DNA from: Nemertoderma westbladi
Lineage: Eukaryota > Animalia > Xenacoelomorpha
DNA length: 49,719 bases
Assembly (NCBI GenBank): GCA_032718475.1
Contig: JAUCBJ010005081.1
Location: forward strand, 1 to 49,719
Direction of reading: 5' to 3'
Notes under the pieces: generated by a model
The model's database searches: none
What the model saw: only the letters and a program-made list of their open reading frames with translations
What the model was told of the DNA's origin: nothing
Position numbers and translations under genes: made by a program
In this document: positions 248 to 47,251 of the stretch, in pieces
Layout: the number at the start of each line of letters is the position of its first letter
How positions within the stretch are numbered: the stretch's first letter is position 1

Positions 248-2848
248 ATGGACCCAAATCGCCAAATTATCGGCGAATTACGTAACACGATAGATCTACT
301 GGAATATTCGCAACCCGGATCCCCTGACTTTGATACAAATTGGAGCACCCTGCTAAATGAGAACGTGCGAGTCATTAAATTCACCGGGCGAGAGGGACCG
401 GATTCTAAGAATCTACGAGCCCTCCGGTTAGCTGATGCTAGTACGAGACTGAAAAGAACTCGGAACGCAAAGGCAACCGGAGGGGACGATTCGTCGTTTT
501 GGGAAACGTTCCGGCAGAGCGTCTACAGATCCCGATGTTTGATCTACGACAACGAGGGAAACGCGACGCCCACCTCGAAAGCGATTACGTTGGCGAGATG
601 TCAAAGTTTCGTCGACGACAAGAGTACGTACCTCGCCCACTGGGGAAACCTGTCGGAGTGTACGGCGACGCTTCGAGAGGAACGCGTATCGATTATCCAA
701 AACCGAGACGACTACCAAGAAAAGTACGGGGCGAAAGAATACGGTCGATCCTTAGTCGTCGTCCTCGGAACCCTGGACGGTTTGGTACTGGTGTGCCGAA
801 TATTCCCGACACCCAGACAGGAAGTGCAGGCAGCCGGAGCGATCTGGTTGCTGCCTCCGGAAATCCAAAAGATCCTCTTCGACTTCGACGTCATTAAAAT
901 CGGGTCGGATATCAAGGCGGACGTCCGGAACGACTACGCGAACGCCCCTGCAGGAAGAAACCGACGAGACGACCTCAACGCCCTTAGCCATTGCATCGAC
1001 ACTCAAACGCTACTAGCCTGGTTACGATTCGCCGAGTTCATGCGAGGATTCCAAGAGGTGAGACCGACGAAATCCGGGATCGGCTACCTCGCTGTGCTCA
1101 ACGGCGGTATCGACTTCAAACCCCAGAAATTCCGGGACTATAATAAAATATACGGTGGATACCCGGGATTGGAAATAAAGAGCGAGCGAGAGGGTCGATG
1201 GAAGGACGTTGATCGGAAGTGGACGATACACCAAAGGTGGGAGAATCCTGATCGACGGAACTACGTTTACGTCGTTATGGAGTGCTACACCGTCGCTAAG
1301 TTTATCTGTAAAACTCTCGATAACCTTATTACGGCGGTCCCCCTTTCCTTCGTCGACTACGACTGGAACGAGGTTATAAACCACGCGTTTAAAGCGGTCG
1401 AGAACATTACACCGGGAGAATCGAAAACACCCGCCGTTATCGATTCCTGGGACGAGAGCGGACCTTACGACATCCCTACGATTACCGAACTTCTCGGTGC
1501 GGAGGAGCCTCTGATCTCCTCGGAAGGGGAAGAGATATGGCTAAACGAGGGTGTTCTACTCTCCACCCCGAAGCGACAACTCGAGCCGGAGGCCGCGTAT
1601 GGACCGGCCGCCAAACGGGTTGCCTCGGCCGAACCGATGAAGAGAGCAGGCGTTTACACCCCACGCGGCTCCGGTAGCCCCGCGAGGGAGGTAGCCACTA
1701 CAGCTGCATTGAGCGACTTCGGCGACATATGCCAACGGTTATCCCCGTATCCTTTCCCGGGTGGCGAAGATTGGTCGTCGGAGATTCCGAGTACCAGCCA
1801 CCAACGGACCCGCGCAGCGATACTGATCGAGGAGGGCCCCAGCGATGCGCCGACCCCCGACGATCTCCTCGGTATCCCTCCGTCTAAAACCCCGGCACCT
1901 CTTCGCCGACCAGCGGTGGCTACTACACCCGCCGTTCCTCAGGACCCTATGCGACTAACCCGTTGGTACGCCGAGCAAACTGAATGGATCCACCGCCAGA
2001 AACGGTCATCCGAGTTGAGACCAGCGGGACACAAAGAAGGTTATCGGAGCGAGAACCTATTACGCAAAAGCCTAGCATTCCGCGGGCTACCGACCACCGA
2101 GAATATTCCGAAGAGCGACCGACGACTCGAATACTACGTCGGCGTCCCGATTCCGATATTTCCTGGTCGAGAGATACAGTTGGAGGTATGCGGCGACTGC
2201 GGTTCGGAGCAGTGCCCACGCAGCAGAAGGAATCGGGTTACCGATTCTTGCCTCCAGCTCCTCGGGATACTCTATTGCCCATACTGCGCGACATCGGGCC
2301 ACGACGTTTCCGTCTGCCCGATCCTTTATAACCTCTGCACCACGTGCGGTTTCCGTGGACATTCCTCTAGCCCCCGCTGCTATATCAAATGTCCAACCAA
2401 AGACGTTACCGCTATGGGCAATATGGTCATGTTTGAGACATACGCAAACAGCCACTTAAAGACCAAGGTTCGGAGAAACGCTCGGAATATCGCGCAGGAG
2501 ATGGCGTGCGGATATTTCTCCTTCCCGGAACGCCTCCACACGTCGGCCACGCTACCTTTCCATTACGTGGATCTGCTACTGAGCGCCGGATTATTCGGTC
2601 CATTTGAAGTCATTAGACGATTATACTCGTATAAAGAGGAGTTCGGTGACGGAGAATGGTTCCTAGAGGCACGCAAATCTGAGTTGGAGAGACGAACCGA
2701 CATGATCCCGATGCCTTCGAAAGGAAGAGCCGCCAGGAGACAAGCCGAAGCGTTACTCACGATGGATGTTGACGCTCCTCTACCAGCCATAGCGATCGAT
2801 GAGAGTCGACGGGCGAAGAGACGAAAGGCGTATCAGAGAAAGAAATAG
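248..2848 (+). CDS. 866-aa retroelement accessory protein: degenerate DEDDy/WRN-EXD-like 3'-5' exonuclease domain, low-complexity linker, CCHC zinc knuckles, basic C-terminus
   Basis: Long, intronless, GC/CpG-rich ORF in AT-rich flanks. LPPEIQKILFDFDVIKIGSDIKAD..CIDTQTL..GIGYLA..RW..YVYVVMECY follows the WRN/EXD layout (LP..L..LL.D..I.KVG.GI..D..CVDL..GL..LA..W..YAA.D). CPYCATSGHDVSVC is CX2CX4HX4C and CTTCGFRGHSSSPRC is CX2CX4HX5C. The protein ends RRAKRRKAYQRKK. ORF is well supported; the domain call is by eye. Confidence 0.7.
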   Translation: MDPNRQIIGELRNTIDLLEYSQPGSPDFDTNWSTLLNENVRVIKFTGREGPDSKNLRALRLADASTRLKRTRNAKATGGDDSSFWETFRQSVYRSRCLIYDNEGNATPTSKAITLARCQSFVDDKSTYLAHWGNLSECTATLREERVSIIQNRDDYQEKYGAKEYGRSLVVVLGTLDGLVLVCRIFPTPRQEVQAAGAIWLLPPEIQKILFDFDVIKIGSDIKADVRNDYANAPAGRNRRDDLNALSHCIDTQTLLAWLRFAEFMRGFQEVRPTKSGIGYLAVLNGGIDFKPQKFRDYNKIYGGYPGLEIKSEREGRWKDVDRKWTIHQRWENPDRRNYVYVVMECYTVAKFICKTLDNLITAVPLSFVDYDWNEVINHAFKAVENITPGESKTPAVIDSWDESGPYDIPTITELLGAEEPLISSEGEEIWLNEGVLLSTPKRQLEPEAAYGPAAKRVASAEPMKRAGVYTPRGSGSPAREVATTAALSDFGDICQRLSPYPFPGGEDWSSEIPSTSHQRTRAAILIEEGPSDAPTPDDLLGIPPSKTPAPLRRPAVATTPAVPQDPMRLTRWYAEQTEWIHRQKRSSELRPAGHKEGYRSENLLRKSLAFRGLPTTENIPKSDRRLEYYVGVPIPIFPGREIQLEVCGDCGSEQCPRSRRNRVTDSCLQLLGILYCPYCATSGHDVSVCPILYNLCTTCGFRGHSSSPRCYIKCPTKDVTAMGNMVMFETYANSHLKTKVRRNARNIAQEMACGYFSFPERLHTSATLPFHYVDLLLSAGLFGPFEVIRRLYSYKEEFGDGEWFLEARKSELERRTDMIPMPSKGRAARRQAEALLTMDVDAPLPAIAIDESRRAKRRKAYQRKK

Positions 2849-3004: not shown

Positions 3005-3012
3005 GGGGGGGA
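3005..3012 (+). promoter_or_regulatory. Polypurine tract of an LTR retroelement
   Basis: GGGGGGGA lies one base before TGTT, the start of the putative LTR. Confidence 0.6.
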
Positions 3013-3013
3013 C

Positions 3014-5056
3014 TGTTCGCGGTATTTCAACTTTCCATAACGCGAGTTGAATATTTTTGTATTTATTTAAAATTGATTATTCCGATATTACTACTGGGTG
3101 CGGGACCATGGGTTTTGGGCACATTCAATAAACTGGGGGCGATTTATGGGCGAACTTTGGGGCAACTTACAGGGTACGGGAATAATTTCATAGTTATAAG
3201 GGCCAGGGGGGGATGGAAAATGCAAGCAGTATTCAGGTTAGCCTGAGTACTATTAGGCCCTGGCCAACTTCCTGCTGCCTGTAGGGGTGGATTTGGTAAT
3301 GCGCCAGGCCTAAAGGACAAGGACTGCCCTTAGCGGTCCCTGGCCAACAGCAGCCATTACGAGACTGAAAAGAACTCGGACCGCTGACTGCTTGTGTCAG
3401 GGATTTGCGACGGGCACCGACGGCCCCTTAGTAGCCAAGCCGTTCTGGTTCTCGATGATCGTTCCCTTCGGGGTTCGTGAGGGGTGGAGCGGACACGCGA
3501 ACGGGTGGCCAACTAACGACTGCCCCCTGACCTAAGCCGTACTGGTTCTCGATGACCGATCCCTTCGGGGTTCGTGAGGGGTGGGACGGACATGCGAAAG
3601 GGCTGGCCACAGGACGGGTTTGACGAGAACTGCCCTTAGCGGTCTCTGGTCAACGGCAGCTACTACGAGACTGAAAAGAACTCGGAACGCTGACTGCTTG
3701 TACTGGGATTTGCGACGGGAACCGACGACAGACCCCTTAGCCAAGCCGTACTGGTTCTCGATGATCGTTCCCTTCGGGGTTCGTGAGGGGTGGAACGGAC
3801 ACGCGATGGGGTCGAAAGACAAAGGACTAGACTCGACTAGACTCTACTGGCCTACCGACTGTTCGGAGCAGTTTCTCGGCTGCCGAAGCGACTACGAGCC
3901 GGAAACGGACTCGGAAAGCCTAGGTGGTTGGGTTTCTGTGATGAACTGACGGACCCCTAGCCAAGCCGTTCTGGTTCTCGATGATCGAACCCTTCGGGGT
4001 TCGTGAGGGGTGGAACGGACACGCGAACGGGTCCACCGACACGACAGACTCCTAGCCAAGCCGTACTGGTTCTCGATGACCGAACCCTTCGGGGTTCGAG
4101 AGGGTTGGTACGGATACGCGACAGAGTCTACCGACTGGACCGACCCTTAGCCAAGCCGTGCTGGTTCTCGATGATCGTTCCCTTCGGGGTTCGTGAGGGG
4201 TGGAACGGACACGCGACAGGGTCGACCGACACCGACACTACGGCACTAAGACTGGGACCGAGGGAAAATCTGGGGAACATTAGGTAGGCTAAAATTCTGA
4301 GCAAACAGTGGGTTATTAAATAATATACTGTAGGGATTTATATTATCGTGTATAATTATTGTGAATATTTGGTGTATATTGATTTGGGGAAGCCCAAAAT
4401 TATTCTTAATCAAGTTTCAATGATGTTGAACGGGTTTCAACTATAGGAAGTTACATTAAAGAGTATATCCAACTAATGCAGCTTTTTATCAACCGCAAAC
4501 TTGCATCTCAGAAAATATTCCCTCCCCACAATCAATATCCGGTGACTGGCCGGGGCTCGGTGGTCTGTTAAGTCACGTCTCCAGCATCGGCGTTTTTCCC
4601 CCCTGGTGTAGGGATAACGGCAACACTTATAATAACAATCGCTACAGGTGAACCTAATTTCACCAAAATCGGAGATAACAAATTTTCGGATTTGATTGAC
4701 AAGTTTGTTGCAAATTGTCAGCGGTTTTTTCCGATTTTTGGAGCACAAATTTCTTTCTCAGAATCTCAGCCGAAATTTTTCTACGTAAATTTGGGGTCGC
4801 TGATTCCGAATTTCAAGTCAAGTTTTCCATTTCGACCTACGGTTAGACTTTTATACGCGCCGAAATTTCGAGAATATTGACAAGATATACAATTTTTGTA
4901 AGCAGTTTTCCCAGATAACGTGTTACCTGGTGTTTCGAAGATGACTTAATCAACTTCAATTTGGGGAACATAGTAGGACAAATTATCAGAGAACATATGG
5001 GTTTGGTTAGTTTTATTCCATTTGCCTCGGATTTATTACTTTTAATAACGCAAACA
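3014..5056 (+). mobile_element. Putative ~2.04-kb 3' LTR (TGTT...AACA) of a BEL/Pao- or Gypsy-type element whose body extends left of the window
   Basis: Starts TGTTCGCGGTATT after the PPT and ends AATAACGCAAACA, an 11/13 inverted match. The partner LTR and gag-pol are not in the window. Confidence 0.6.
3326..4224 (+). ncRNA. Array of structured RNA hairpins: six ~69-nt K-turn/cUUCGg hairpins, two longer GAAA-capped hairpins and one variant
   Basis: Type A cores at 3432-3500, 3534-3597, 3738-3806, 3958-4026, 4053-4121 and 4148-4216. Type B at 3326-3415 and 3632-3720. Basal stems show compensatory changes. ACCGAC linkers recur between units. Confidence 0.65.
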
Positions 5057-5497
5057 TTACGTTATGGAATTACACAACAAAGAAAAAGGCTTTTTTGAAT
5101 TTTTTTATAGTGAAAGTTTAATTTTAACTAAACATATTGCGCATAAGTAGATATGTTCAAAATGCCCGCCATGGTAAAGAAATTTAAGCTGATTTAGAAA
5201 GCCTGTACGTACAGCTGTATTGGTGTCGTTACGGAATTACAAACCAGATCGTTATGGAATTTCAAACAAATGTGAGAAGTTTTTGAACTGGGATATTTGT
5301 CATCGTGATTTACATACAACGCCATGACCCGGAATATAATGTCGTCGTAATTCAATGACAAAAGGATTTCACTTCCCGACCACTTAGTGGGAGAGGCGGA
5401 CTTTTTATATTTGCTTTCAATCTTTAGCGACAACCGTTAAAAAAAAGTGTCTCCTGTGATATTACACAAGTCCCACCGCAGTTATTTTTCAACTTTG

Positions 5498-5776
5498 TAG
5501 TACTACTACTACTACTAGGATCGGCATGCTGCATTGCAGCTGCATTTTTAAGAATGCTGTGCCGGCTTGTCTACAAAATTGCGCCGCCACAACTCCCTAT
5601 CACCCATGGCATTTGCTAGATCATCTGCATCTTCAAGGCCAGTGTCCTTTAAGATGCGTCTCAAGAAAGTCATGGGCTGTCCAACATGCTTATTCACTCC
5701 ATGAGGCTGCCAAAGTACAAGATTATGCACTGGCTGGTCCTCACGGCGAAAGCAATGTCCTGCAAAGCGGAGGCGA
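5498..5776 (-). mobile_element. 3' fragment of an RTE-clade LINE, same family as 45543-47251
   Basis: (TAG)n tail (tac repeats on +) and near-identity to 45543-45812, encoding RLRFAGHCFRREDQPVHNLVLWQP. Confidence 0.9.
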
Positions 5777-6151: not shown

Positions 6152-7402
6152 ACGCTATGCCACAGAATCACGACCTCTCTAAAAGTAACATCTCTGATCC
6201 TGTCAACCATACGTTTTTCTTCAGAGTCATCGAAGATTGCACTGCAAATCTGATTACTAACGCTGGATAAATTATATATTTTTTTAATTGTAATTAAATC
6301 AAAAATATCGAAAAAGTAACATAGGTTTAAATAATTGCCTATAACATTTTTATACTTTCGTATTGGACCCTAAATTTTTGCATGCAAGCTCAGAATTAAA
6401 TTCTCATAAATTTAAATTAATTTAAATATATTACACTAAGGTGGATGTCTGGTTTTGGCTGGCCAGGGGGTGGGGGGGGGGGGGGGGGGATCATTATGGA
6501 ACACCCGGTAGAAGGTATTATTATACTGTTTCAATTCAGTGTTTCATAATATAGTGAGTGAACAGTGATTACATTGGTCATATTGACTTAGGCCCTTTAA
6601 AAAAACACAATGTATATAATGGATTCTAGGAATCTCTGATTTAGGCCGTTATGGAATTGGAATTATCTCAATAACCCCGCATTCTGGTGCGTTGGGGGTC
6701 TAACTGTGCTCCGAACTATATGCTACCTAATTGCATACTGGCTTATAAAAAGTTACTTAGGCCCTTATGATATTACAGCATCGATGTGATTTCTGGGTTT
6801 AAAAAATTAATTAAATTAATTTTAATATATTCAGATAAAGGACAGTATTGGCGGTGATTTCAAACCAAAACAATAAACACAACACTTTATTGCATATTAG
6901 ACCAGTTTGCGCTGGAGATTCCCATTACAATAAAAGTAAGTACAAATGTTCTAGAACACTCACCTGATGCAATGAAATTGGTATCAAATCATGAACCAGT
7001 GTATAATTCGCATCATTTTGGAAAAATTTTCAATGTTGATACTACTACTACTAGGATCGGCATGCTGCATTGCAGCTGGGTCAATAAGCTTAAAAGTGGC
7101 CAATGGTTTGTCCGGAAGTTACGATATAATTTTAAATGCTTTAATTTATTCGTATTTAATAAAGTTATATATTATTTTGTAGCTAATTTATTTGCGCAGC
7201 TTACGCACTAAAAATTATCAAAATCTGTAAAGGCAGTCAAAAGAAAAGATATGCCCCATCAAAGACTGAAATATCGTGAAAATCACTTGTCCCTTACATG
7301 ACACGACCACAAACAACTGTAAATTTTATCACCCCAAGTGGCAAATATATAGGAAACCTATATATTGTTGGGGAGCTAAGAAGTTTTGCTTTCTTTTCCG
7401 AT

Positions 7403-7578
7403 ATATTTCAGACCATAATATTTATATTGAACCATTTGAGATCGAGACATAAAATGGGCATGGATTTTTCAATTTTTGTGTGACATCTGTATATTTCAGG
7501 CCATAATATTTATATTGAACCATTTGAGATCGAGACATAAAATGGGCATGGATTTTTCAATTTTTGTATGACATCTGT
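7403..7578. repeat. 88-bp direct tandem duplication, 2 copies
   Basis: ATATTTCAG.CCATAATATTTATATTGAACC...GACATCTGT occurs twice in a row. Confidence 0.9.
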
Positions 7579-7855
7579 AACATTTACGTTGTAGCAACTT
7601 ACAATATCGTTAAAACATATTAATTTGATTCTCAGTAAGTTGTTATATTAATACGGTCAGCGCTGTCAGATAAGCTGATTATCCTGGTGTTGTTGTTAAG
7701 TTGCTAAGCAACATACCAATCTCACTATGTACTAACAGCTGTAGTCCTAATCTCAGCTATATGGGGAGGTGAGATAGGTCCTACTATTTAGAGTATTGTC
7801 CAGTAATTGTGACTCCGCCACATGACCCCCCCCCCCCCCCCAGACTCGAAATAGT

Positions 7856-10555
7856 TTACAAATAGTCCGGCGGGTGGATTGTTCGTCCTGACCGAGTTTG
7901 TGTGGGCGCTAAGGGTGGGCTCTGTGATGGGACAATTTTATTCGGAGCCGCTGGTTGTATGGGAACCGGAATAGGGTTAGGTGGTCGACCACGGCGCCGT
8001 GGATGGTCAAGGGTGACAGGTTTAGTTATGTCAAGATGTGCTGGTTTCAGTCGGTCGACCGAAACTGTTTCGGTACGACCCCCCATCTCAATCTTGAACG
8101 TTTTTGTTCCAGTTTCGAGAACCCTGTAGGGGCCCTCATAGGGCCGTTCTAGCGGTGTCCGGTGGGCATCGCGTCGGATGAAGACGTAGGTGGCGTTCTG
8201 TAGGCCCGGGGGAACTGACGACGAAGTCAAACCATGGCGTGATGTGGGAACCGGAACAAAACGCCCAACCACTTGACGAAGTTGGGGAAGTATTGTTGAC
8301 GGGGTGTGTTGGGTTTCTATAGACGGTGGTAGGAACTCTCCCGGGACAGTGAGCGGAGCACCATAAACGAGCTCGGCGGAGGAGGTTCCTAAGTCGTCCT
8401 TGGGTGCTGTCCGGATTCCGAGAAGCACCCATGGTAATGCGTCTACCCAATCAGGGTTGTCGAGAGAGGCTCGAAGGGCAGACTTGAGATGACGGTGAAA
8501 CCGTTCTACCAGTCCATTCGCCTGTGGGTGATACGCGGTGGTGCGGTGTAGTTGGATGCCCAGCAGCTTGTTGATGGCCGACCAGAAGTGGGAGGTGAAT
8601 TGTGAACCCCAGTCCGATGAGAGATCGGCTGGAACACCGAATCGGGCGATCCATGTCGAAATGAGTGCACGCGCACAGCTCTCTGTGGAAGTTTCACTGA
8701 GGGGTACAGCCTCTGGCCACCGAGTGAAGCGGTCCACAATCGTCAGCAGGTGGGTGAAACCGTGTGATGGTGGTAGAGGACCAACGAGATCAACATGTAT
8801 GTGGTCGAATCGGCGGTGAGGGGTTGCGAAGGTGCCGAGGGGTGCACGTATGTTGCGTTGCACCTTGGAGGTCCGGCACGGGATGCAGGTCTTAACCCAG
8901 TCTCCTACTTCTTTGCGGAGGCCGTGCCAGACAAACATATCAGCAATGATTGTCTTGGTTGCGCGAGCCCCAGGGTGTGACAGACCGTGGATGGTGTTGA
9001 ATACACGTCGTCGCCAGGCCTTGGGAACGACTGGGCGAGGGTGGCCGAGGGAGGTGTCGCATTGTAGTGTGGCACCTGATGGGCCAAGTGAGACGTCCTC
9101 CAGCTGAAGGCCGGAAACAGCCGTGCGGTACATGGCCATCTCTGTGTCGACAAGTTGAGCGTCCGCCATGGCCCTGTAGTCGAGCCCAGGAAGCAAGTTG
9201 CATATGGTGTTAGTATTAGTCCTGGAGAGTGCATCTGCCACACAGTTGTCTTTACCAGCGATGCGTTGGATGTCTGTGGTAAACTCCGAGATGTAGGAGA
9301 GGTGACGCTGCTGTCTATTGGACCATGGGTCACTGATCTTTGCGAGCACAAAAGTTAGTGGTTTGTAGTCAGTGTACACGGTGAAGGGCCGACCTTCCAG
9401 GAAGTACCGGAAGTGGCGGATTGCTAGGTACAGCGCAAGCAGCTCCCGGTCGAATGCACTATATTTGACTTCCGGGGGACGTAGTTGGCGGCTAAAGAAC
9501 GCAAGGGGGCGCCATGAGTTACCGATGAGTTGTTCTAGAACAGCACCCACTGCTGTACCTGATGCGTCCACTGTGAGTGCTGTGTGGGCGTTGGTGTTGG
9601 GATGAGTTAACATCGTCGCATTGGCGAGGGCATCCTTTGCGATCTGGAATGCGTGATCCATGTTGGGAGTCCAGTTTAGTGTTTCCCCGCCAGGGCCGCA
9701 TATAGGGGTCGCATGATGTCAGCAGCGGAGGGGACGAACCGATGGTAAAAGTTTACCATCCCCACAAACTCCTGTAGGCCTTTCACCGTGGTTGGCTGTG
9801 TAAACTCCCGGATGGCGGCGACCTTGTCGGGGAGCGGAACAGCACCGTGAGTTGAAATACGGTGGCCAAGGAAGTCGATTGTTTCACGACCAAACTGACA
9901 TTTTGCCAGGTTGATAACAAGGCCTTGGTGTTGAAGGCGCATGAAGAGCTGATGGAGGTGTTCACGGTGCTCCGACTTGGACCGACTTGCAACGAGAATG
10001 TCATCGAGGGAAACAAATATGAAGTCGAGTCCCTGGCACACCGTGTCCATCAGTCTCTGGAAGGCCTGGGCTGCGTTCTTCAGCCCGAACGGCATCCGAA
10101 GGAACTCGAACAGTCCGAACGGGGTGATGACCGCAGTCTTGGCGATGTCGGCTTCTCGCTGTGACAGGGATCTGGTGGTAGCCGCGCACCAGATCGATCT
10201 TCGAGAAGATCTTCGCACCTGCCAGTCGGGAGGAGAAGTCCTGGATGTGGGGGATGGGGTATCGGTCCGGAGTTGTGGCGTCGTTAAGTCGTCGGTAGTC
10301 GCCACACGGCCGCCAACCGACCGAGGGTTTGGGGGCCATGTGGAGGGGCGACGCCCAGGGACTGTTGGACCAGCGGATGATCCCCATCTCTTCCATTTTG
10401 CGGAACTCCTCCCTCGCGATTTCCAGTTTATCTGGAGGTAGGCGACGGACCCTGCGTGGGGATGTAGTGCTCCACGCCGTGTTTCGCGGTCGGGTCAGAA
10501 AACCGTGGTACTGTAATGTCAGGATATTCGGCAAGTATCTGGGCGAACTCGTCAT
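7856..10555 (-). pseudogene. Gypsy pol (RT, RNase H, integrase), frameshifted
   Basis: Motifs [38 protein letters not shown] (for YLDD), TVDASG, VADALSR, HHCC zinc finger, HVDLVGP and NGLVERFH, spread over three ORFs. Confidence 0.92.
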
Positions 10556-10572
10556 TGGAGGCAGCTATAGAA

Positions 10573-10920
10573 CTAAGGTGGAGGGCGTGGCCCCGGGTCT
10601 GTCCACATGGGATCGAGAGGATCGCCGAGTCCGTTTAGGTCCCAGAGCCTTGCGGCACGGTCGCGCCGTGAGAGGCTGTATGTTTTATTGAGTTTCGCCT
10701 TTAGGGAGTTATATTTATCTCCGGCTGGAGGATCTCGTATTAGGTTGAGGAGCCGGCTGGCGGTGTCTTGGTCCAAAGCACCCACGACGTAGTAGTACTT
10801 CGTGTCGTCCGCTATGATACTACGGATATTAAATTGTGCCTCGGCCTGGGCGAACCATACCTCAGGCTGGGAAGTCCAGAAGGAGGGGAGTTTCAGGGAG
10901 ACTGCGTTCGCTTCAACCAT
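10573..10920 (-). pseudogene. Truncated Gypsy gag N-terminus
   Basis: AVSLKLPSFWTSQPEVWFAQAEAQF is a typical Mag-like gag start. Similarity breaks after LNGLGD (~10620) and joins the post-protease linker, so the gag C-terminus and protease are missing. Confidence 0.85.
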
Positions 10921-13854
10921 GGTTGTTGATTTGGTTGAGAAAGTTCGTTAGTGATTCGGTCGCATCGGTTCTTTTGGGGTTTTCTCAAAAATTCGTTTTG
11001 AGACGCCGGGTCACCAATGTAGCAACTTACAATATCGTTAAAACATATTAATTTGATTCTCAGTAAGTTGTTATATTAATATGGTCAGCGCTGTCAGATA
11101 AGCTGATTATCCTGGTGTTGTTGTTAAGTTGCTAAGCAACATACCAATCTCACTATGTACTAACAGCTGTAGTCCTAATCTCAGCTATATGGGGAGGTGA
11201 GATAGGTCCTACTATTTAGAGTATTGTCCAGTAATTGTGACTCCGCCACAACGTCTAGAATCTGAAATATTAACTGTAGGTTTACAGTTTTGATATATTT
11301 AGAATCTACAGGGTTTCTAACATATATAGGCCAAATATCGCATACAAAGGGTAAGGTCACCTCATTTGGGAAGCATTTATGTTTAACAAAGTCAATATAG
11401 AAAGCATAAACGTCCATATCTGTAACGCTACAAATGTGGCCATAGATTTTGATAATATTAATCTCATACAAGTATAATGGTACGTGTGGTAAGGCAATTT
11501 TAATTTATGCCGCATTAACCCCAAGAGTTAATGTGAAAAATAAACACCTATGATGTATGGCGGTGGTAAGCGTTTTTGTCAACAATCTGTAACGCGTCAC
11601 CGTTACAGTGCAGTGCGTTACAGATAAGGGATGTCTCATCTGTAACGCATTATATAACCAGTTATCGATGCGTTACAGACTGTAGGTTTCAGTCCTATCT
11701 ATATGACAGTCCTATCTGTAACGGAGTGTCATCCTGAAATACAATAAGGCATCACTGACAATACTTGAATGCCTACGCGTTTGATACGTTCTTCGTCTTC
11801 CTACTGACATCCTAACTGCTCATGGTAATGTGGTAGTGTAAGATGGGTAAGTGTAAAACGCGGATCCGGATCGGTACCCGGATTTTGGGGTTAAAACGCG
11901 GATCCGGATTTTCATGAAATCCGGAAATGAGTCCAAAATGCGAATTCAAGATAATTTTCATTGTCAAGTGCGTTACTTGATCCCGTAAGGGGAGTAAAAC
12001 ACGGATTCATGTTTATCTCTATCCGGGAAGAGGTGATTGTGGATTCTGGGGAGTAATAGCGCAGATTCACTTCACATATGAAATTGTATGAATCCAGAGC
12101 TTCTGGGTCCGTGGTAAATAATTTAGGAATTAATTGCAAATATACACTCTCCATCTTATAAATTTTATGTATTAATAAAATGTGCTTTCTGTAAAATTTC
12201 GCTTTATTTCGTTTAGAATTGTAGAAGATACATTTCCTACAAACAGTGTTTTTTTTAACATACAATATATTGTACAGACGGTCCTTTGCCCAATGTTTTG
12301 TTTTTCGTTTTTCATGATTAGGGTCTGCAGACGTACAGTATATAGATAGGTTTCAATAAATTTGTATGTCTAATTTCATCTGACATGAAGCAATAAATAA
12401 ACAAAAGTAAAGAATCCAGTGACTGTTATCAGTGAGTCTTGTGTAACTTCAATGTAAGAGATTGAGATGTATAATTTACTCTAATGATTAAATACTCTAA
12501 TGCGTATAAAAGGCCTAGATTTTACTATCAATTTCTAAATCATTGCCTTAACATCACTTACTGACTTACATGACGGACTTGTGCACTACTTATATTATTG
12601 TGATAAGTTTAGTCAGATCCGTTTATTGGATGTGGTAATAGACGTCTCTGAATCAGTTGCAGAGAAACGCCAGGAAGCGGTTAAATAAGTACAGAGAGCA
12701 AATGTACCGCGGTTGTTATACATAGTATTTTAAACAAGCATATAAAAAGCGGCGCGATAGAGAAAATTTAACACGGGATAAAAAAAAGTCGTGTAAAACA
12801 AGATTATCGGTTACACAGAAAAATGTTAGTGAAAAACTTTTTCTATATTTATTGGAAACCATGTGTATTAAGTACATATAATTTAGTGGATGCGATGGTT
12901 ACGGGCAGATATCGCTGTTTGTTACAGATGTTTGTCCAATAAATTACCTTATTGTCGAAGCAATAAGTTATAAATACTGCAAAATCCATATAACATAATT
13001 ACCGTTACAGATGGCCGTTACAGACGTTTGTCCCATAAATGTCATCACTGTAATGCGTTACAGTGGTAGACAAAAACGTTACAGATATGACATTAGTTTT
13101 TGCCATATGTCTCCCTTTGAGCACCGCCTCATGCTCTCCCTCTACCATCACAAGATTCGCCATGAAATTATCTTTCGAATGGTGTATGGTATGGCACTAA
13201 TTTCCGACAAAAATTTTTTGGTCAATTTGTACACCTTTTTGGCCACTTTTAAGCTTATTGACCGACCCAGCTGCATTTTTAAGAATGCTGTGCCGGCTTA
13301 TCGACAAAATTCAATGTTGATGACACGACAACAATATTAAATTACCTTACAAAAACAACCCAATACATTTGCTATTTATTAAATACTTCAATGCAAAGTA
13401 AAATATAATATCTACCGGTCTTGTATTTTTTAAAACACAATTTCTTCATGCATTTTTAAGGGGTATTTATTGTCTGCGTTGTAATGATCTCCACTGCTCT
13501 GCATTTTAATGTTAATACTAGAAGTTGCCCTGATCTTCCTTTGACTTATAATTAAATCGAGGAATTAAAAAAAATCAAATTATGAATTATGTTCCATTCT
13601 ATTCAATTAAATTCAATAAACGCCAATAATATAACCCATTACTACTAACACACAATAACAATATTCTAAAATGGGAATGTAAAATTATCAGCATAATTAT
13701 ATAAATTGCACAAAATGAACAACAAAAGATTTTGATTAAAAGGCACCAGGTGGATAATAACTATTTAGTTCAGTAACATACCAGTTTGTAAGCGATATTG
13801 TAATTGCTATAGACCATAATCCAAACCTAATGAATACCTAACTTTATATGCGAT

Positions 13855-17879: not shown

Positions 17880-17979
17880 CTTTATAAAATGTTTATAATA
17901 TTAATACCATTACTAACGGATACAAGCAAGCAAACAGTCGGCCGAAACCGGAGGCGACCCGAAGGCCCCTCTTTTGATA

Positions 17980-20679: not shown

Positions 20680-21277
20680 ATGTAACTCACGGGAACTTAT
20701 ACAGACCCACGTAACTCACAGGAACTTATACAGACCCACGTAACTCACAGGAACTTATACAGACCCATGTAACTCACCGGAACTTATACAGACCCACGTA
20801 AGTCACAGGAACTTATACAGACCCACGTAACTCACAGGAACTTATACAGACCCACGTAACTCACAGGAACATATACAGACCCACGTAACTCACAGGAACT
20901 TATACAGACCCATGTAACGCACCGGAACTTATACAGACCCATGTAACTCACAGGAACTTATACAGACCCACGTAACTCACAGGAACATATACAGACCCAC
21001 GTAACTCACAGGAACTTATACAAACCCATGTAACTCACAGGAACTTATACAGACCCACGTAACTCACAGGAACTTATACAGACCCATGTAACGCACCGGA
21101 ACTTATACAGACCCATGTAACTCACAGGAACTTATACAGACCCACGTAACTCACAGGAACATATACAGACCCACGTAACTCACAGGAACTTATACAAACC
21201 CACGTAACTCACAGGAACTTATACAGACCCACGTAACTCACAGGAACATATACAGACCCACGTAACTCACAGGAACT
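20680..21277. repeat. 29-bp tandem array (~20 copies) spanning a splice donor
   Basis: Minus unit AGTTCCT|GTGAGTTACGTGGGTCTGTATA begins at the end of exon 21271-22039. Confidence 0.96.
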
Positions 21278-22039
21278 GTACTCCAACGCGGTGAGTAAGG
21301 AGCAGCGTCTCTCCGCATCCCAGCGGTGTCTGGCGGTACCGGTGACGGCCTGGCCAACGGGCCACCAACCCAACCAGACGAACACGGCCCCCGGGGAGGC
21401 GTCGAGGAGGAAGACGGCGGGTTGATCCAAGGGTCGGAACAGTTCCGCCTGCGGGAACGGGCAGTGGGTCGGGTCGGAACGGGAGTGAACCAACGGGGAG
21501 ACCAACTCGTTGGCTTGGAACGTTCCGGAGACGCTGCTCAGACGGAACAGTCGCTGCGAGAACGACGGCCCACTCTGATTGTTTGGCTGCCGGTCATACA
21601 GAGTTAAACAACTCGCGTCTCCTAGCAACAGCAGAAAATTCGACGGCTCGGCGTGTTCCTCGCATTCGATTACTTTGAGTTCCGAATCTTTCCGTTCCGT
21701 TTCTCCCCGGGGGAAACCGAACTCAGTGGGTCGGTCCGACTTCAACCGACCAATCGCGTGTCGCGCCGCATCCCTGGATTGCGGGGTTGCTAGGCAACCA
21801 ATCCAAAGGTAACATGAGAAACTCGAGGAATCCATTAGGATCAGACACAGACGGGATCGCAACGAACGAACCGACAACTCCGTCTGCACCAAATAGACCT
21901 CGGAAGAGATGTCGCCACGACAACAGTACAGACGCGGACCAATAGGTGGAACTGAATCACGGTTGCCATGGTGAACCGCCATACCACCCTGGAATATCTG
22001 CGTGAAGGCTGGGGGTTCTTTGGATTCAGCAACTCGAAC
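21271..22039 (-). CDS. SVIL: Supervillin-like exon (gelsolin repeats), 769 bp
   Basis: gttacag|VRVAESKEPPAFTQIFQGGMAVH...SLRSR...YLWIGC...FVWLGWWP...RWDAERRCSLLTALEYSS-T|gtgagt; phase 0/1. Confidence 0.95.
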
Positions 22040-22073
22040 CTGTAACATAAAACATAACGGCATACTGAAAGGC

Positions 22074-45300: not shown

Positions 45301-45542
45301 CCTTGGAAGTATACCCCAGTATTGTGTGTGTTTGGTGGGGCAATTACCTTGGAAGTATACCCCAGTATTGGGTGTGTTTGGTGGGGCAATTACCTTGGAA
45401 GTATACCCCAGTATTGGGTGTGTTTGGTGGGGCAATTACCTTGGATGTATACCCCAGTATTGGGTATATGGTGGGGCAATTACCTTGGAAGTATACCCAA
45501 GTATTGGGTGTGTTTGGGTGGGGCAATTACCTTGGAAGTATA

Positions 45543-47251
45543 CTACTACTACTAGGATCGGCATGCTGCATTGCAGCTGCATTTTTAAGAATGCTGTGCC
45601 GGCTTGTCAACAAATTTGCACCGCCACAACTCCCTATCACCCATGACATTTGCTAGATCATCCGCATCTTTAAGGCCAGTGTCCTTTAAGATGCGTCTCA
45701 AGAAAGTCATGGGCTGTCCACCATGCTTATTCACTCCATGAGGCTGCCAAAGTACAAGATTATGCACTGGCTGGTCCTCACGGCGAAAGCAATGTCCTGC
45801 AAAGCGGAGGCGATTTTGTTCTAGTGTCAAGCTTGGGGGAACCAATGAGACACCTCCAATGTTATATAGTGTCTGGTTGGAGATGTGTGCATTGTACTTG
45901 ACACAATGAACCCGGCGTAGCATTCTTGTGAATGTGCCGTCCAGAGATTTGGTGTCCTCAGCAGTTAGAGCCCAGCATGGACTCCCGTAGAGGAGTACTG
46001 GAACTACTGCTGCTCTAAATAATCGGACCTTAAGTTTCCGATTAATTCTAGGTGACTTCCAAATCCTGGAAAGCCTATTCAAGGCTGCCCATGCCTTTCC
46101 CTTACGTATTCGAAGGTCCTCACCTGACTTCCGGATCCATGATCCCAGGTAACAGAAGTCGTCCACATGCTCAAGCATACCATCCTTTGAGTTTATGATC
46201 ATCCGATCAGAGACTTGCTGAGGACTTTCAAAGTTAACTGTCAGAATTTTGGTCTTTCTGGAGTTAATAAAAAGACCAACACTAGAAGCAGCATGTTCTA
46301 ATGAGCTGAGGAGCCGTTGGGCTCCCTCTAATGATTCTGAGAGTACTCCTAAGTCATCAGCAAAGTCTAGATCAGTTAGATACTTGGCAGGATTTCCTCG
46401 ACTTCCTGAGCCAGTAGGTGGAGTTATCATCACCCCATCATCATTATGATGATCTAAGGACATGCGTAGAACATAGTCTACCACAATAATGAACAAGAAT
46501 GGTGCAAGTGTGTCTCCCTGGAGGACGCCCCATAACACTTCAAATGGTTCTGTGTCACCGTCAACAGTAGACACAAATGTTGTCGAACCATCGTATACTG
46601 ATCTGATTGCTGCAATAATTTCATCAGGAATCCCATATAATGAAAGTATGCTGAACATACGTGACCGAGAGACTGAATCAAAGGCCTTGAAGAAGTCAAC
46701 AAAGATAACAGCCAGATGCCTGTCTTTCTTTTTTGATAATTCTTCAATTATCCTTCTAAGAGCCAAAATGGGCTTCATGGTCCCACGACCTTTACGGAAC
46801 CCATTCTGATTTCCACGGAGCAGTCTCTCAATGGGATCCCTGATGCGATTTAATAGAATCCTATTGTATAGCTTTGCAGCAATCGAGATCAATGAGATTC
46901 CCCGAAAAGAACCATAGAGTGTTAGGTTGCCCTTCTTGGGAACTGGCACCAACTTATTTGTTTTCATTTCTTGTGGGACTCTTGTTGTTCGGTACATGTC
47001 TACTATGATGGGATAGATGAGCTTTAAACACTCAGGTATTTTAAAGACCTCAGGGGGAACACCATCTACTCCACTGGCACGATTGGTCTTAATGCTCTTT
47101 GCAGCAGCCTTCACTTCTGCAAAGGAGATATCGCCAATGGGAATATCTGGGAGTACAGACTCAGACACTTTTACTTCTATAAAGTTATCAGGCAATACCC
47201 TGTCATTATTGAGGAGCTTTTCAAAGTGGGCTTTCCAACCATTAAGGCGAA
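45543..47251 (-). mobile_element. 5'-truncated RTE-clade LINE with (TAG)n tail and 11-bp TSD
   Basis: TSD TTGGAAGTATA at 45532-45542 and 47252-47262; microsatellite tail; uninterrupted RT frame. Confidence 0.93.
45585..47251 (-). CDS. RTE-type reverse transcriptase, N-terminally truncated (no endonuclease, no native start)
   Basis: PVPKKG, FRGISL, QNGFRKGR, FVDFFKAFDSV, GVLQGDTLAPFLF, LDFADD, FCYLGS, RLRFAGH. Confidence 0.9.

Follow-up and report, generated by a model that had tools for sequence, protein, structure and literature searches.

Results

A repeated LTR element with an accessory gene under purifying selection

The window analysed here, the 49,719-nucleotide contig of Nemertoderma westbladi, carries near its left end the 3' part of what is likely a BEL/Pao-group long terminal repeat (LTR) retrotransposon, with an accessory gene whose product joins a predicted DEDDy exonuclease domain to a cysteine-rich domain. 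Coordinates are on the plus strand unless marked (-). The gene is an open reading frame (ORF) of 866 codons running from ATG to TAG at 248-2848, detected by an ORF scan of the window; at its composition, an equally long stop-free run has a chance of 3e-16. A gap of 165 bp separates its end from the LTR, and a G7A polypurine tract at 3005-3012 precedes the TGTT at 3014 that opens the LTR; similar G-runs precede the LTR in relatives. The LTR spans 1,612 bp (3014-4625) and closes with AACA, an end marked by a step in depth and by loose contig ends: in the public run X1, two contigs diverge into other sequence at 4625. With its TG...CA ends and the polypurine tract before it, the LTR shows features expected of a BEL/Pao element. 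Candidate poly(A) signals are AATAAA at 3127 and ATTAAA at 4315 and 4455. The original prediction, made from the letters of this DNA, was thus right in placing an intact 866-aa ORF immediately upstream of a polypurine tract and LTR. It had also proposed a splice acceptor in the AT-rich 247 bases that precede the ORF; the hexamer TTTCAG is indeed present at 188-193, but it makes a weak candidate, since it also occurs in 4.9% of shuffled versions of bases 1-247.

The ORF and the LTR belong to a repeated element, and the ORF is under purifying selection. The summed depth of public-run contigs rises at the LTR start and falls at its end, with values in run X2 of ~14,000-41,000 in ORF bins, 60,000-117,000 in LTR bins and less than 650 at 4801-5400; such depth is no copy number, and we therefore read these values only as "repeated". 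Among 255 differing places, in which copies and strains are mixed, the 40 best supported include 30 within the ORF, and 24 of these are synonymous against six nonsynonymous, for 615 synonymous and 1,983 nonsynonymous sites (ratio of nonsynonymous to synonymous proportions, pN/pS, ~0.08, p 1e-10). All nine differences listed in codons 62-308 are synonymous, and none of the 12 indels listed (31 in total) falls within the ORF.

The position of the gene is that of env, and its product is not an envelope protein: we found neither a signal peptide or transmembrane anchor nor homology to fusion proteins. The 866-aa protein has no Pfam match, and its sole hydrophobic peak is the beta-strand at residues 168-188, within the nuclease core.

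Relatives lie behind BEL/Pao pol genes

A full phmmer scan with the protein returned 10 relatives (E 5e-14 to 7e-4), none informatively named; seven have the N-terminal domain and all 10 the Cys-rich domain. Searching half of the metagenome collection with a nucleotide pattern of the Cys motif turned up 120 loci, of which 80 come with flanks; in viral contigs the motif had no match. These relatives are only ~20% identical to the protein of the window. As called, P0005, P0008 and P0011 consist of the Cys-rich domain only, and P0003 has this domain twice with a truncated exonuclease. Two further members (L121 and L122) sit on short contigs of two bacterial metagenome-assembled genomes, likely as eukaryotic contamination.

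Forty-one loci extend 3.5 kb or more 5' of the motif, and a same-strand BEL-type pol lies upstream in 37 of them, a count that includes the three loci whose own pols served as queries; the same three queries matched no upstream pol in L004, L010, L017 and L045. These loci support the original claim that the ORF is an accessory gene of a retroelement, placed where env would be. Pfam scans of 13 pol-side ORFs detected the Pao-specific Peptidase_A17 in 10 and DUF5641 in nine, both of them marks of BEL/Pao, whose pol has the order PR-RT-RH/Peptidase_A17-IN-DUF5641. In both L074 and L018 there are two LTRs of 95-96% similarity, the first being followed by a primer-site-like stretch; TG...CA ends and a purine tract are visible in L074 besides. 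The named BEL/Pao superfamilies are Pao, BEL, Tas, Suzu, Sinbad, Dan and Flow.

The exonuclease gene has travelled with its carrier for a long time. We compared the 29 loci that have both parts, all of them relatives (the window's protein, with no pol in view, stands outside the comparison). Of the 13 splits of the integrase tree supported at 0.9 or more, 11 are found again in that of the exonuclease, where no strong split contradicts any of the 13; exonuclease and integrase distances are correlated (Mantel rho 0.80, 0/2000 permutations). Identity of the reverse transcriptase (RT)-RNase H region to L021 spans 28 to 50%, two close relatives excepted. At the level of sequence, this demonstrates a long joint inheritance of exonuclease gene and integrase, which is not proof of functional co-evolution.

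Could the ORF be a host gene, or a passenger without a role for the element, that happens to stand beside a solo LTR? The window does lack gag-pol. The ORF is however intronless, its depth and that of the LTR are repeat-like and far above the flank, its relatives are located behind BEL/Pao pol, and it is under strong purifying selection, all of which makes such an origin extremely improbable. The ORF, the LTR, the selection, the four acidic residues described below, and the existence of a family whose genes follow BEL/Pao pol in relatives together leave us highly confident about the identity of the gene, and the carrier of the window's ORF is likely a BEL/Pao-group element.

An N-terminal domain with a predicted DEDDy fold

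As a single query, the 866-aa protein matches nothing in Pfam or the PDB, and word-index protein searches gave zero, two and six matches, none named. The profile of a 48-row family alignment, on the other hand, matches EXD2 (E 9.8e-14), the exonuclease part of Trypanosoma brucei RNase D and Egalitarian (E 1.2e-4), and two of the 48 rows match PF01612. An AlphaFold model built from this alignment has a mean predicted local distance difference test score (pLDDT) of 60, with 80-94 in the strands and helices of the nuclease core; from the single sequence, pLDDT is 34. The top structural match of the model is the EXO domain of Nibbler (VIA Z 13.0, root-mean-square deviation 3.7, 201 aligned), and although rows within ~1 Z of it are near ties that include bacterial diDNases, every row listed is either a nuclease of the DEDD family or a polymerase bearing a domain of this kind. 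Foldseek with the whole model gave nothing under E 0.001, its top rows being Egalitarian, Nibbler and EXD2. The ESM Atlas leads for the N-terminal domain reach 0.91-0.93, and a profile of 57 relatives built without the window's protein matches its exonuclease domain at E 1e-25. The region of residues ~64-385 (437-1402) is thus predicted to adopt a DEDDy (DnaQ-like) 3'-5' exonuclease fold, the fold that the original prediction had proposed to look for.

Intact and degenerate active sites within one family

The family alignment places the ExoI motif at YDNEG, with D101 and E103 (548-556): the independent profile of 57 relatives puts its D-x-E on these residues. They close a predicted strand (residues 97-103) with a pLDDT of 94 for residues 91-100 and 68 for 101-110, right before a helical insert of ~60 aa (560-742) where relatives have a short loop only. 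The original prediction had read ExoI as NRD, that is, residues 152-154, inside this insert and at the start of a predicted helix; we reject this reading. Its two other motifs stand: ExoII is GSDIKAD, with D225 (920-922), and ExoIII is YVVME, with Y341 and E345 (1268-1282), the latter a Glu instead of the usual Asp.

The 67 exonuclease-domain segments collected reduce to 58 at less than 80% identity, of which 26, this protein included, keep the four acidic residues, 24 are degenerate and eight incomplete. In four of the 26 the residue at the less certain ExoII column is Glu. ExoIII Glu occurs in three of them, P0002 and P0004 sharing the DEDE set with the protein studied here. A clade of 18 rows (Shimodaira-Hasegawa-like approximate likelihood ratio support 97, quick tree) lacks the ExoI Asp in all 17 readable rows and keeps the Cys-rich domain; loss of metal ligands is seen in 17 of the 18, the remaining row being incomplete. 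L026, L079, L077, L053, L031, L002 and L028 are among its members. The linker between the domains measures ~310-520 aa in this clade versus 120-240 in most members with intact sites, and where it can be tested the clade coincides with one integrase clade.

The label of pseudo-exonuclease is thus not supported for the protein of the window: it arose from the misalignment of ExoI onto NRD, and all four acidic positions (D101, E103, D225 and E345) hold Asp or Glu. Judging by the alignment, dead versions are real and confined to other branches of the family, and we think it probable that the nuclease of this member is active.

An intact nuclease most similar in structure to Nibbler raises the possibility of counter-silencing. 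Nibbler trims small RNAs, and the accessory protein might likewise trim or sequester the 3' ends of the host's PIWI-interacting and small interfering RNAs (piRNA and siRNA), the hairpin array of the LTR described below being then unrelated to it, in keeping with the failure to find the array in relatives. A link between such exonucleases and silencing was raised by Rodriguez et al. (PMC5408684, in the portions of the text at hand), and an arenavirus exonuclease is described as dampening immune signalling in the accessible part of PMC7968707, where viral exonucleases are covered. A common fold is no demonstration of function, though, and a clade of 18 rows thrives without catalytic residues; we take counter-silencing to be somewhat unlikely as the role of the protein, if still a serious candidate.

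The Cys-rich domain and the C-terminal tail

The exonuclease domain is followed by a linker rich in Pro, Ser and Thr (residues ~390-645; 1415-2182), mostly with pLDDT below 50, and then by the Cys-rich domain (residues ~648-800; 2189-2647), which ends in a conserved helical tail. It contains one canonical CX2CX4HX4C knuckle (C677-C690) flanked by two clusters that are knuckle-like only (C648/C651/C668 and C697/C700/H705/C711), so that the zinc knuckles first claimed for this protein hold in the strict sense for one of them. The residues of the Cys motif are invariant in the 11 sequences found by phmmer. Conservation of the pattern-fixed Cys residues would be circular in loci found by the pattern itself; at positions free of it (C648, C651, C668, C677, Y679 and T739), conservation is 91-98% in 65 rows. 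The protein studied here departs from the consensus at H655Q, H694Y and G736H. The larger profile of the domain matches nothing in Pfam or the PDB, and its ESM Atlas leads (DUF8363, CCHC) all stay below 0.9; as far as sequence tells, it is an unnamed family. The arginine-rich tail was correctly spotted: the last 21 residues, a basic C-terminal helix (2783-2845), are 43% Arg/Lys and could possibly act as a nuclear signal or contact RNA.

Knuckles spaced as in the nucleocapsid of Gag suggest another role, in which they would serve as a second nucleocapsid and the exonuclease would help reverse transcription within the particle, proofreading or trimming cDNA 3' ends or flaps. The DEDDy fold is common to A-family proofreading domains and WRN, PF01612 is recognised in L072, and the gene is co-inherited with integrase. 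Yet the gene is a separate ORF in the env position, a dead clade exists, and most BEL/Pao elements are without such a gene, only an occasional env being mentioned in the sections of PMC3118150 available to us. We find this role improbable.

Hairpins in the LTR and in the ORF

Two types of hairpin alternate across 3335-4230 of the LTR. Type A is present in six copies with a UUCG loop (starts at 3451, 3548, 3757, 3977, 4072 and 4167; cores within 3451-4199), located by repeat and pattern scans. By sequence, all six units fit the consensus (C, GAU, GA ... GA, G) of the box C/D-type kink-turn (K-turn), which is characterised by a C-G pair, a 3-nt bulge, tandem GA/AG and flanking stems. The pattern occurs nine times on the plus strand of the window, six of them in type A units, and not at all on the opposite strand. 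The K-turn register is less stable by 3-5 kcal/mol than a slipped Watson-Crick one under an energy model that scores neither sheared pairs nor bound protein, and the K-turn reading therefore stays a lead. Folding of hairpin A against shuffles is modest (z -1.9 and -1.0), and an Rfam search of the array gave no match. We also considered a hammerhead for unit A and rejected it, since the core does not match the hammerhead consensus.

Type B has a 5x4 internal loop, similar to the bulged-G/loop E motif, and a GAAA tetraloop. Its three LTR copies (3335-3408, 3641-3714 and 3870-3943) fold better than shuffles (z -4.2, -2.1 and -1.9), and a fourth copy lies inside the ORF, at 419-492 (z -6.8, 0/200 shuffles). 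The four copies have a common apical structure on lower stems that differ in sequence; 35 of 36 cells are paired in the four sequences, and two pairs are changed on both sides. RNA models recover five of six A copies and four of four B copies in the window itself.

Is the array part of the gene's system, as the Rev and Rev response element (RRE) of retroviruses would suggest by analogy? Viral contigs gave no match to hairpin B, internal repeats are lacking in the LTRs of L018 and L074, and in the eight loci whose contigs place gag-pol after the ORF the longest exact repeats of the intervening stretch measure 10-26 bases, versus 56 here. Run X6, perhaps an RNA data set, joins position 3444 to 4161, which shows that assemblies can collapse arrays; as short-read contigs are prone to this, the absence of the array in relatives is no proof. 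Joints between array units are also visible in the contigs, either as copy-number variants or as assembly collapse. Within the loci searched, the array is confined to this element, and a Rev/RRE-like pair common to the whole family is not supported because the array is absent from all 82 related loci (0/82), distant as these are (~20% identity). Homologues lacking the array, one of the outcomes that the original prediction had named as refuting it, are thus what these loci show. For a possible partnership of protein and array in this element alone there is one new hint, the hairpin B inside the ORF.

The original version of this idea, a catalytically dead fold locked with the array into an obligatory Rev/RRE-like pair, could point to the ExoIII Glu and to the large insert beside ExoI as blocks to catalysis, to the hairpin B common to ORF and LTR, and to the possible collapse of arrays just described. 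It has to face the intact D101, E103, D225 and Y341, the DEDE set of two distant relatives, and the lack of an array in long two-LTR or circular contigs, and we regard it as quite improbable.

Other features of the window

Beyond the LTR, the window holds other repeats and a host gene. A Gypsy-type LTR element at 7560-11270 (-), whose LTRs are 99.6% identical across 233 bp and whose pol is split among three ORFs, has inserted into another element, itself bounded by terminal inverted repeats of 25 bp (7079-7103 / 13239-13263). A highly abundant non-LTR element that ends in a (TAG)n tail, which we take to be RTE-like, is represented by a 3' fragment and a longer, RT-bearing copy, at 5493-5776 and 45531-46997 (-); a match to IRE_II at 5627-5657, within the fragment, is below threshold (24 bits, E 0.42) and probably due to chance. 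At least eight long arrays of minisatellites, with repeat units of 20-56 bp in as many as 206 copies, lie within 14273-49719, and the long ORFs at 17889, 32130, 44784, 47017 and 48956 are artefacts of them. Between satellites, 21209-22063 (-) is a gelsolin-repeat exon (weak Pfam match) of a host gene that we read as supervillin-like, and that by itself indicates an animal host.

Discussion

This gene is a real, selected, non-env accessory gene of an LTR retrotransposon. As a tentative account, to which as a whole we give somewhat less than an even chance, we propose that its DEDDy-zinc product binds the element's own RNA and helps in its export, protection or packaging. The ORF3s of such elements are usually expressed from a spliced or subgenomic message, and the protein would be made from one as well. 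The Cys-rich domain would be the indispensable RNA-binding part, by analogy with the knuckles of T. brucei RNase D; the nuclease of this member, probably active, would trim RNA 3' ends, while the large sister clade would work without catalysis, as Egalitarian and EXD1 do. In this element, the binding sites are likely to be the structured LTR array and the hairpin in the coding region of the gene. We favour RNA binding as the core job because the two-domain layout, and not catalysis, survives in every branch; to judge from sequence, catalysis is dispensable in the 18-row clade that keeps the Cys-rich domain.

Several observations weigh against this account. The window contains no gag-pol, the ORF having just 247 bp upstream of it there, and the protein sits on a long branch of uncertain place in the exonuclease tree. 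The ~60-aa insert beside ExoI is unique to it, and E345 takes the place of the Asp whose loss nearly stops RNase D, the D230A mutant of the T. brucei enzyme showing trace activity only (PMC7797062, in the part of the paper at hand); with this substitution and this insert, activity is not assured. A tail at least 30% basic is found in just eight of 58 relatives and is thus no family trait. Regarding the RNA, the covariation level of hairpin B is reached by 24 of 500 shuffles, for four rows only, and the models of hairpins A and B had no match better than E 0.8 in the 82 related loci.

A bolder version, speculative and in our view rather unlikely, would see here an old BEL/Pao lineage with its own RNA-handling system, in which the DEDDy-zinc protein recognises LTR structures rebuilt by each element family: here, six K-turns recruiting a host protein of the L7Ae type, and loop-E hairpins, of which the copy in the ORF would provide feedback control. 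If this were true, the retention or loss of catalysis by branch would repeat, inside a transposon, the path from a Nibbler-like nuclease to an Egalitarian-like RNA adaptor.

Whatever its precise role, the gene broadens the picture of BEL/Pao elements, usually gag-pol with an occasional env: here is a widespread lineage that includes both live and dead branches and has carried a non-env nuclease-zinc gene since before pol diverged to ~28% identity. The features that outlast catalysis indicate where the essential function lies, and the protein and the two hairpins are compact enough that binding and nuclease activity could be assayed directly. Our literature searches on BEL/Pao exonucleases or DEDD genes, DEDDy ORF3s and Terminons, and K-turns in LTRs returned no description of this family; most subscription journals, Repbase entries and supplements were outside their scope, and a prior annotation of the family is therefore possible. 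The word "nuclease" does not occur in the available parts of PMC3118150, which describes BEL/Pao with only an occasional env, nor in those of PMC2996953.

Among cellular proteins, EXD2, Nibbler (Mut-7), the WRN exonuclease, Egalitarian and EXD1 have the same fold, with active and dead versions coexisting, EXD2 being the family's best sequence match and Nibbler its best structural one; unlike the gene described here, they are cellular, intron-bearing and without this Cys-rich domain, at 10-18% identity. RNase D of T. brucei (PDB 7c42 series) comes closer in layout, since it has a DEDD exonuclease followed by CCHC knuckles, and the accessible text of PMC7797062 describes its zinc fingers as binding RNA and holding it for the exonuclease domain. 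Our family profile matches both its parts (exonuclease E 1.9e-5, knuckles E 1.1e-5; structure Z 10.7), but RNase D has neither the long disordered linker between the domains nor the conserved helical extension of the Cys-rich domain, and the match is lost with the larger Cys-domain profile, so that the likeness is probably convergent.

Retroviral Rev and Rex, and CERV of the C. elegans LTR element Cer1, also invite comparison. CERV is likewise an accessory protein of an LTR element, with a Cys-rich part that export of the genomic RNA requires and an enzyme-like fold presumed inactive; its H, M and G-protein-like domains are, by description, not homologous to those found here, export is shown for CERV and only proposed for our protein, and the word "exonuclease" does not occur in the portions of that paper's text at hand (PMC10309623).

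The closest precedent is found in bdelloid rotifers, where Juno/Vesta elements and Terminons carry DEDDy ORF3s with a DEED motif and untested function, as laid out in the available text of PMC5408684 and repeated in that of PMC6431247 and PMC5718144. As in Juno/Vesta, a DEDDy exonuclease gene lies downstream of pol in an LTR element. By description, the two cases nonetheless differ: the carrier clade is here BEL/Pao, the proteins measure 700-1,200 aa and include a Cys-rich domain fused to the nuclease, the motif is DEDD or DEDE instead of DEED, and the rotifer ORFs are described as recent, repeated captures, whereas here the gene follows the integrase tree down to a pol identity of 28% (PMC5408684, same portions). 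A nuclease ORF3 in LTR elements is thus known, and the BEL/Pao carrier and the fused, unnamed Cys-rich domain are what we have not found in print. The live and dead branches of this family offer a natural comparison for the question posed in 2017 of what the DEDDy ORFs of retroelements do.

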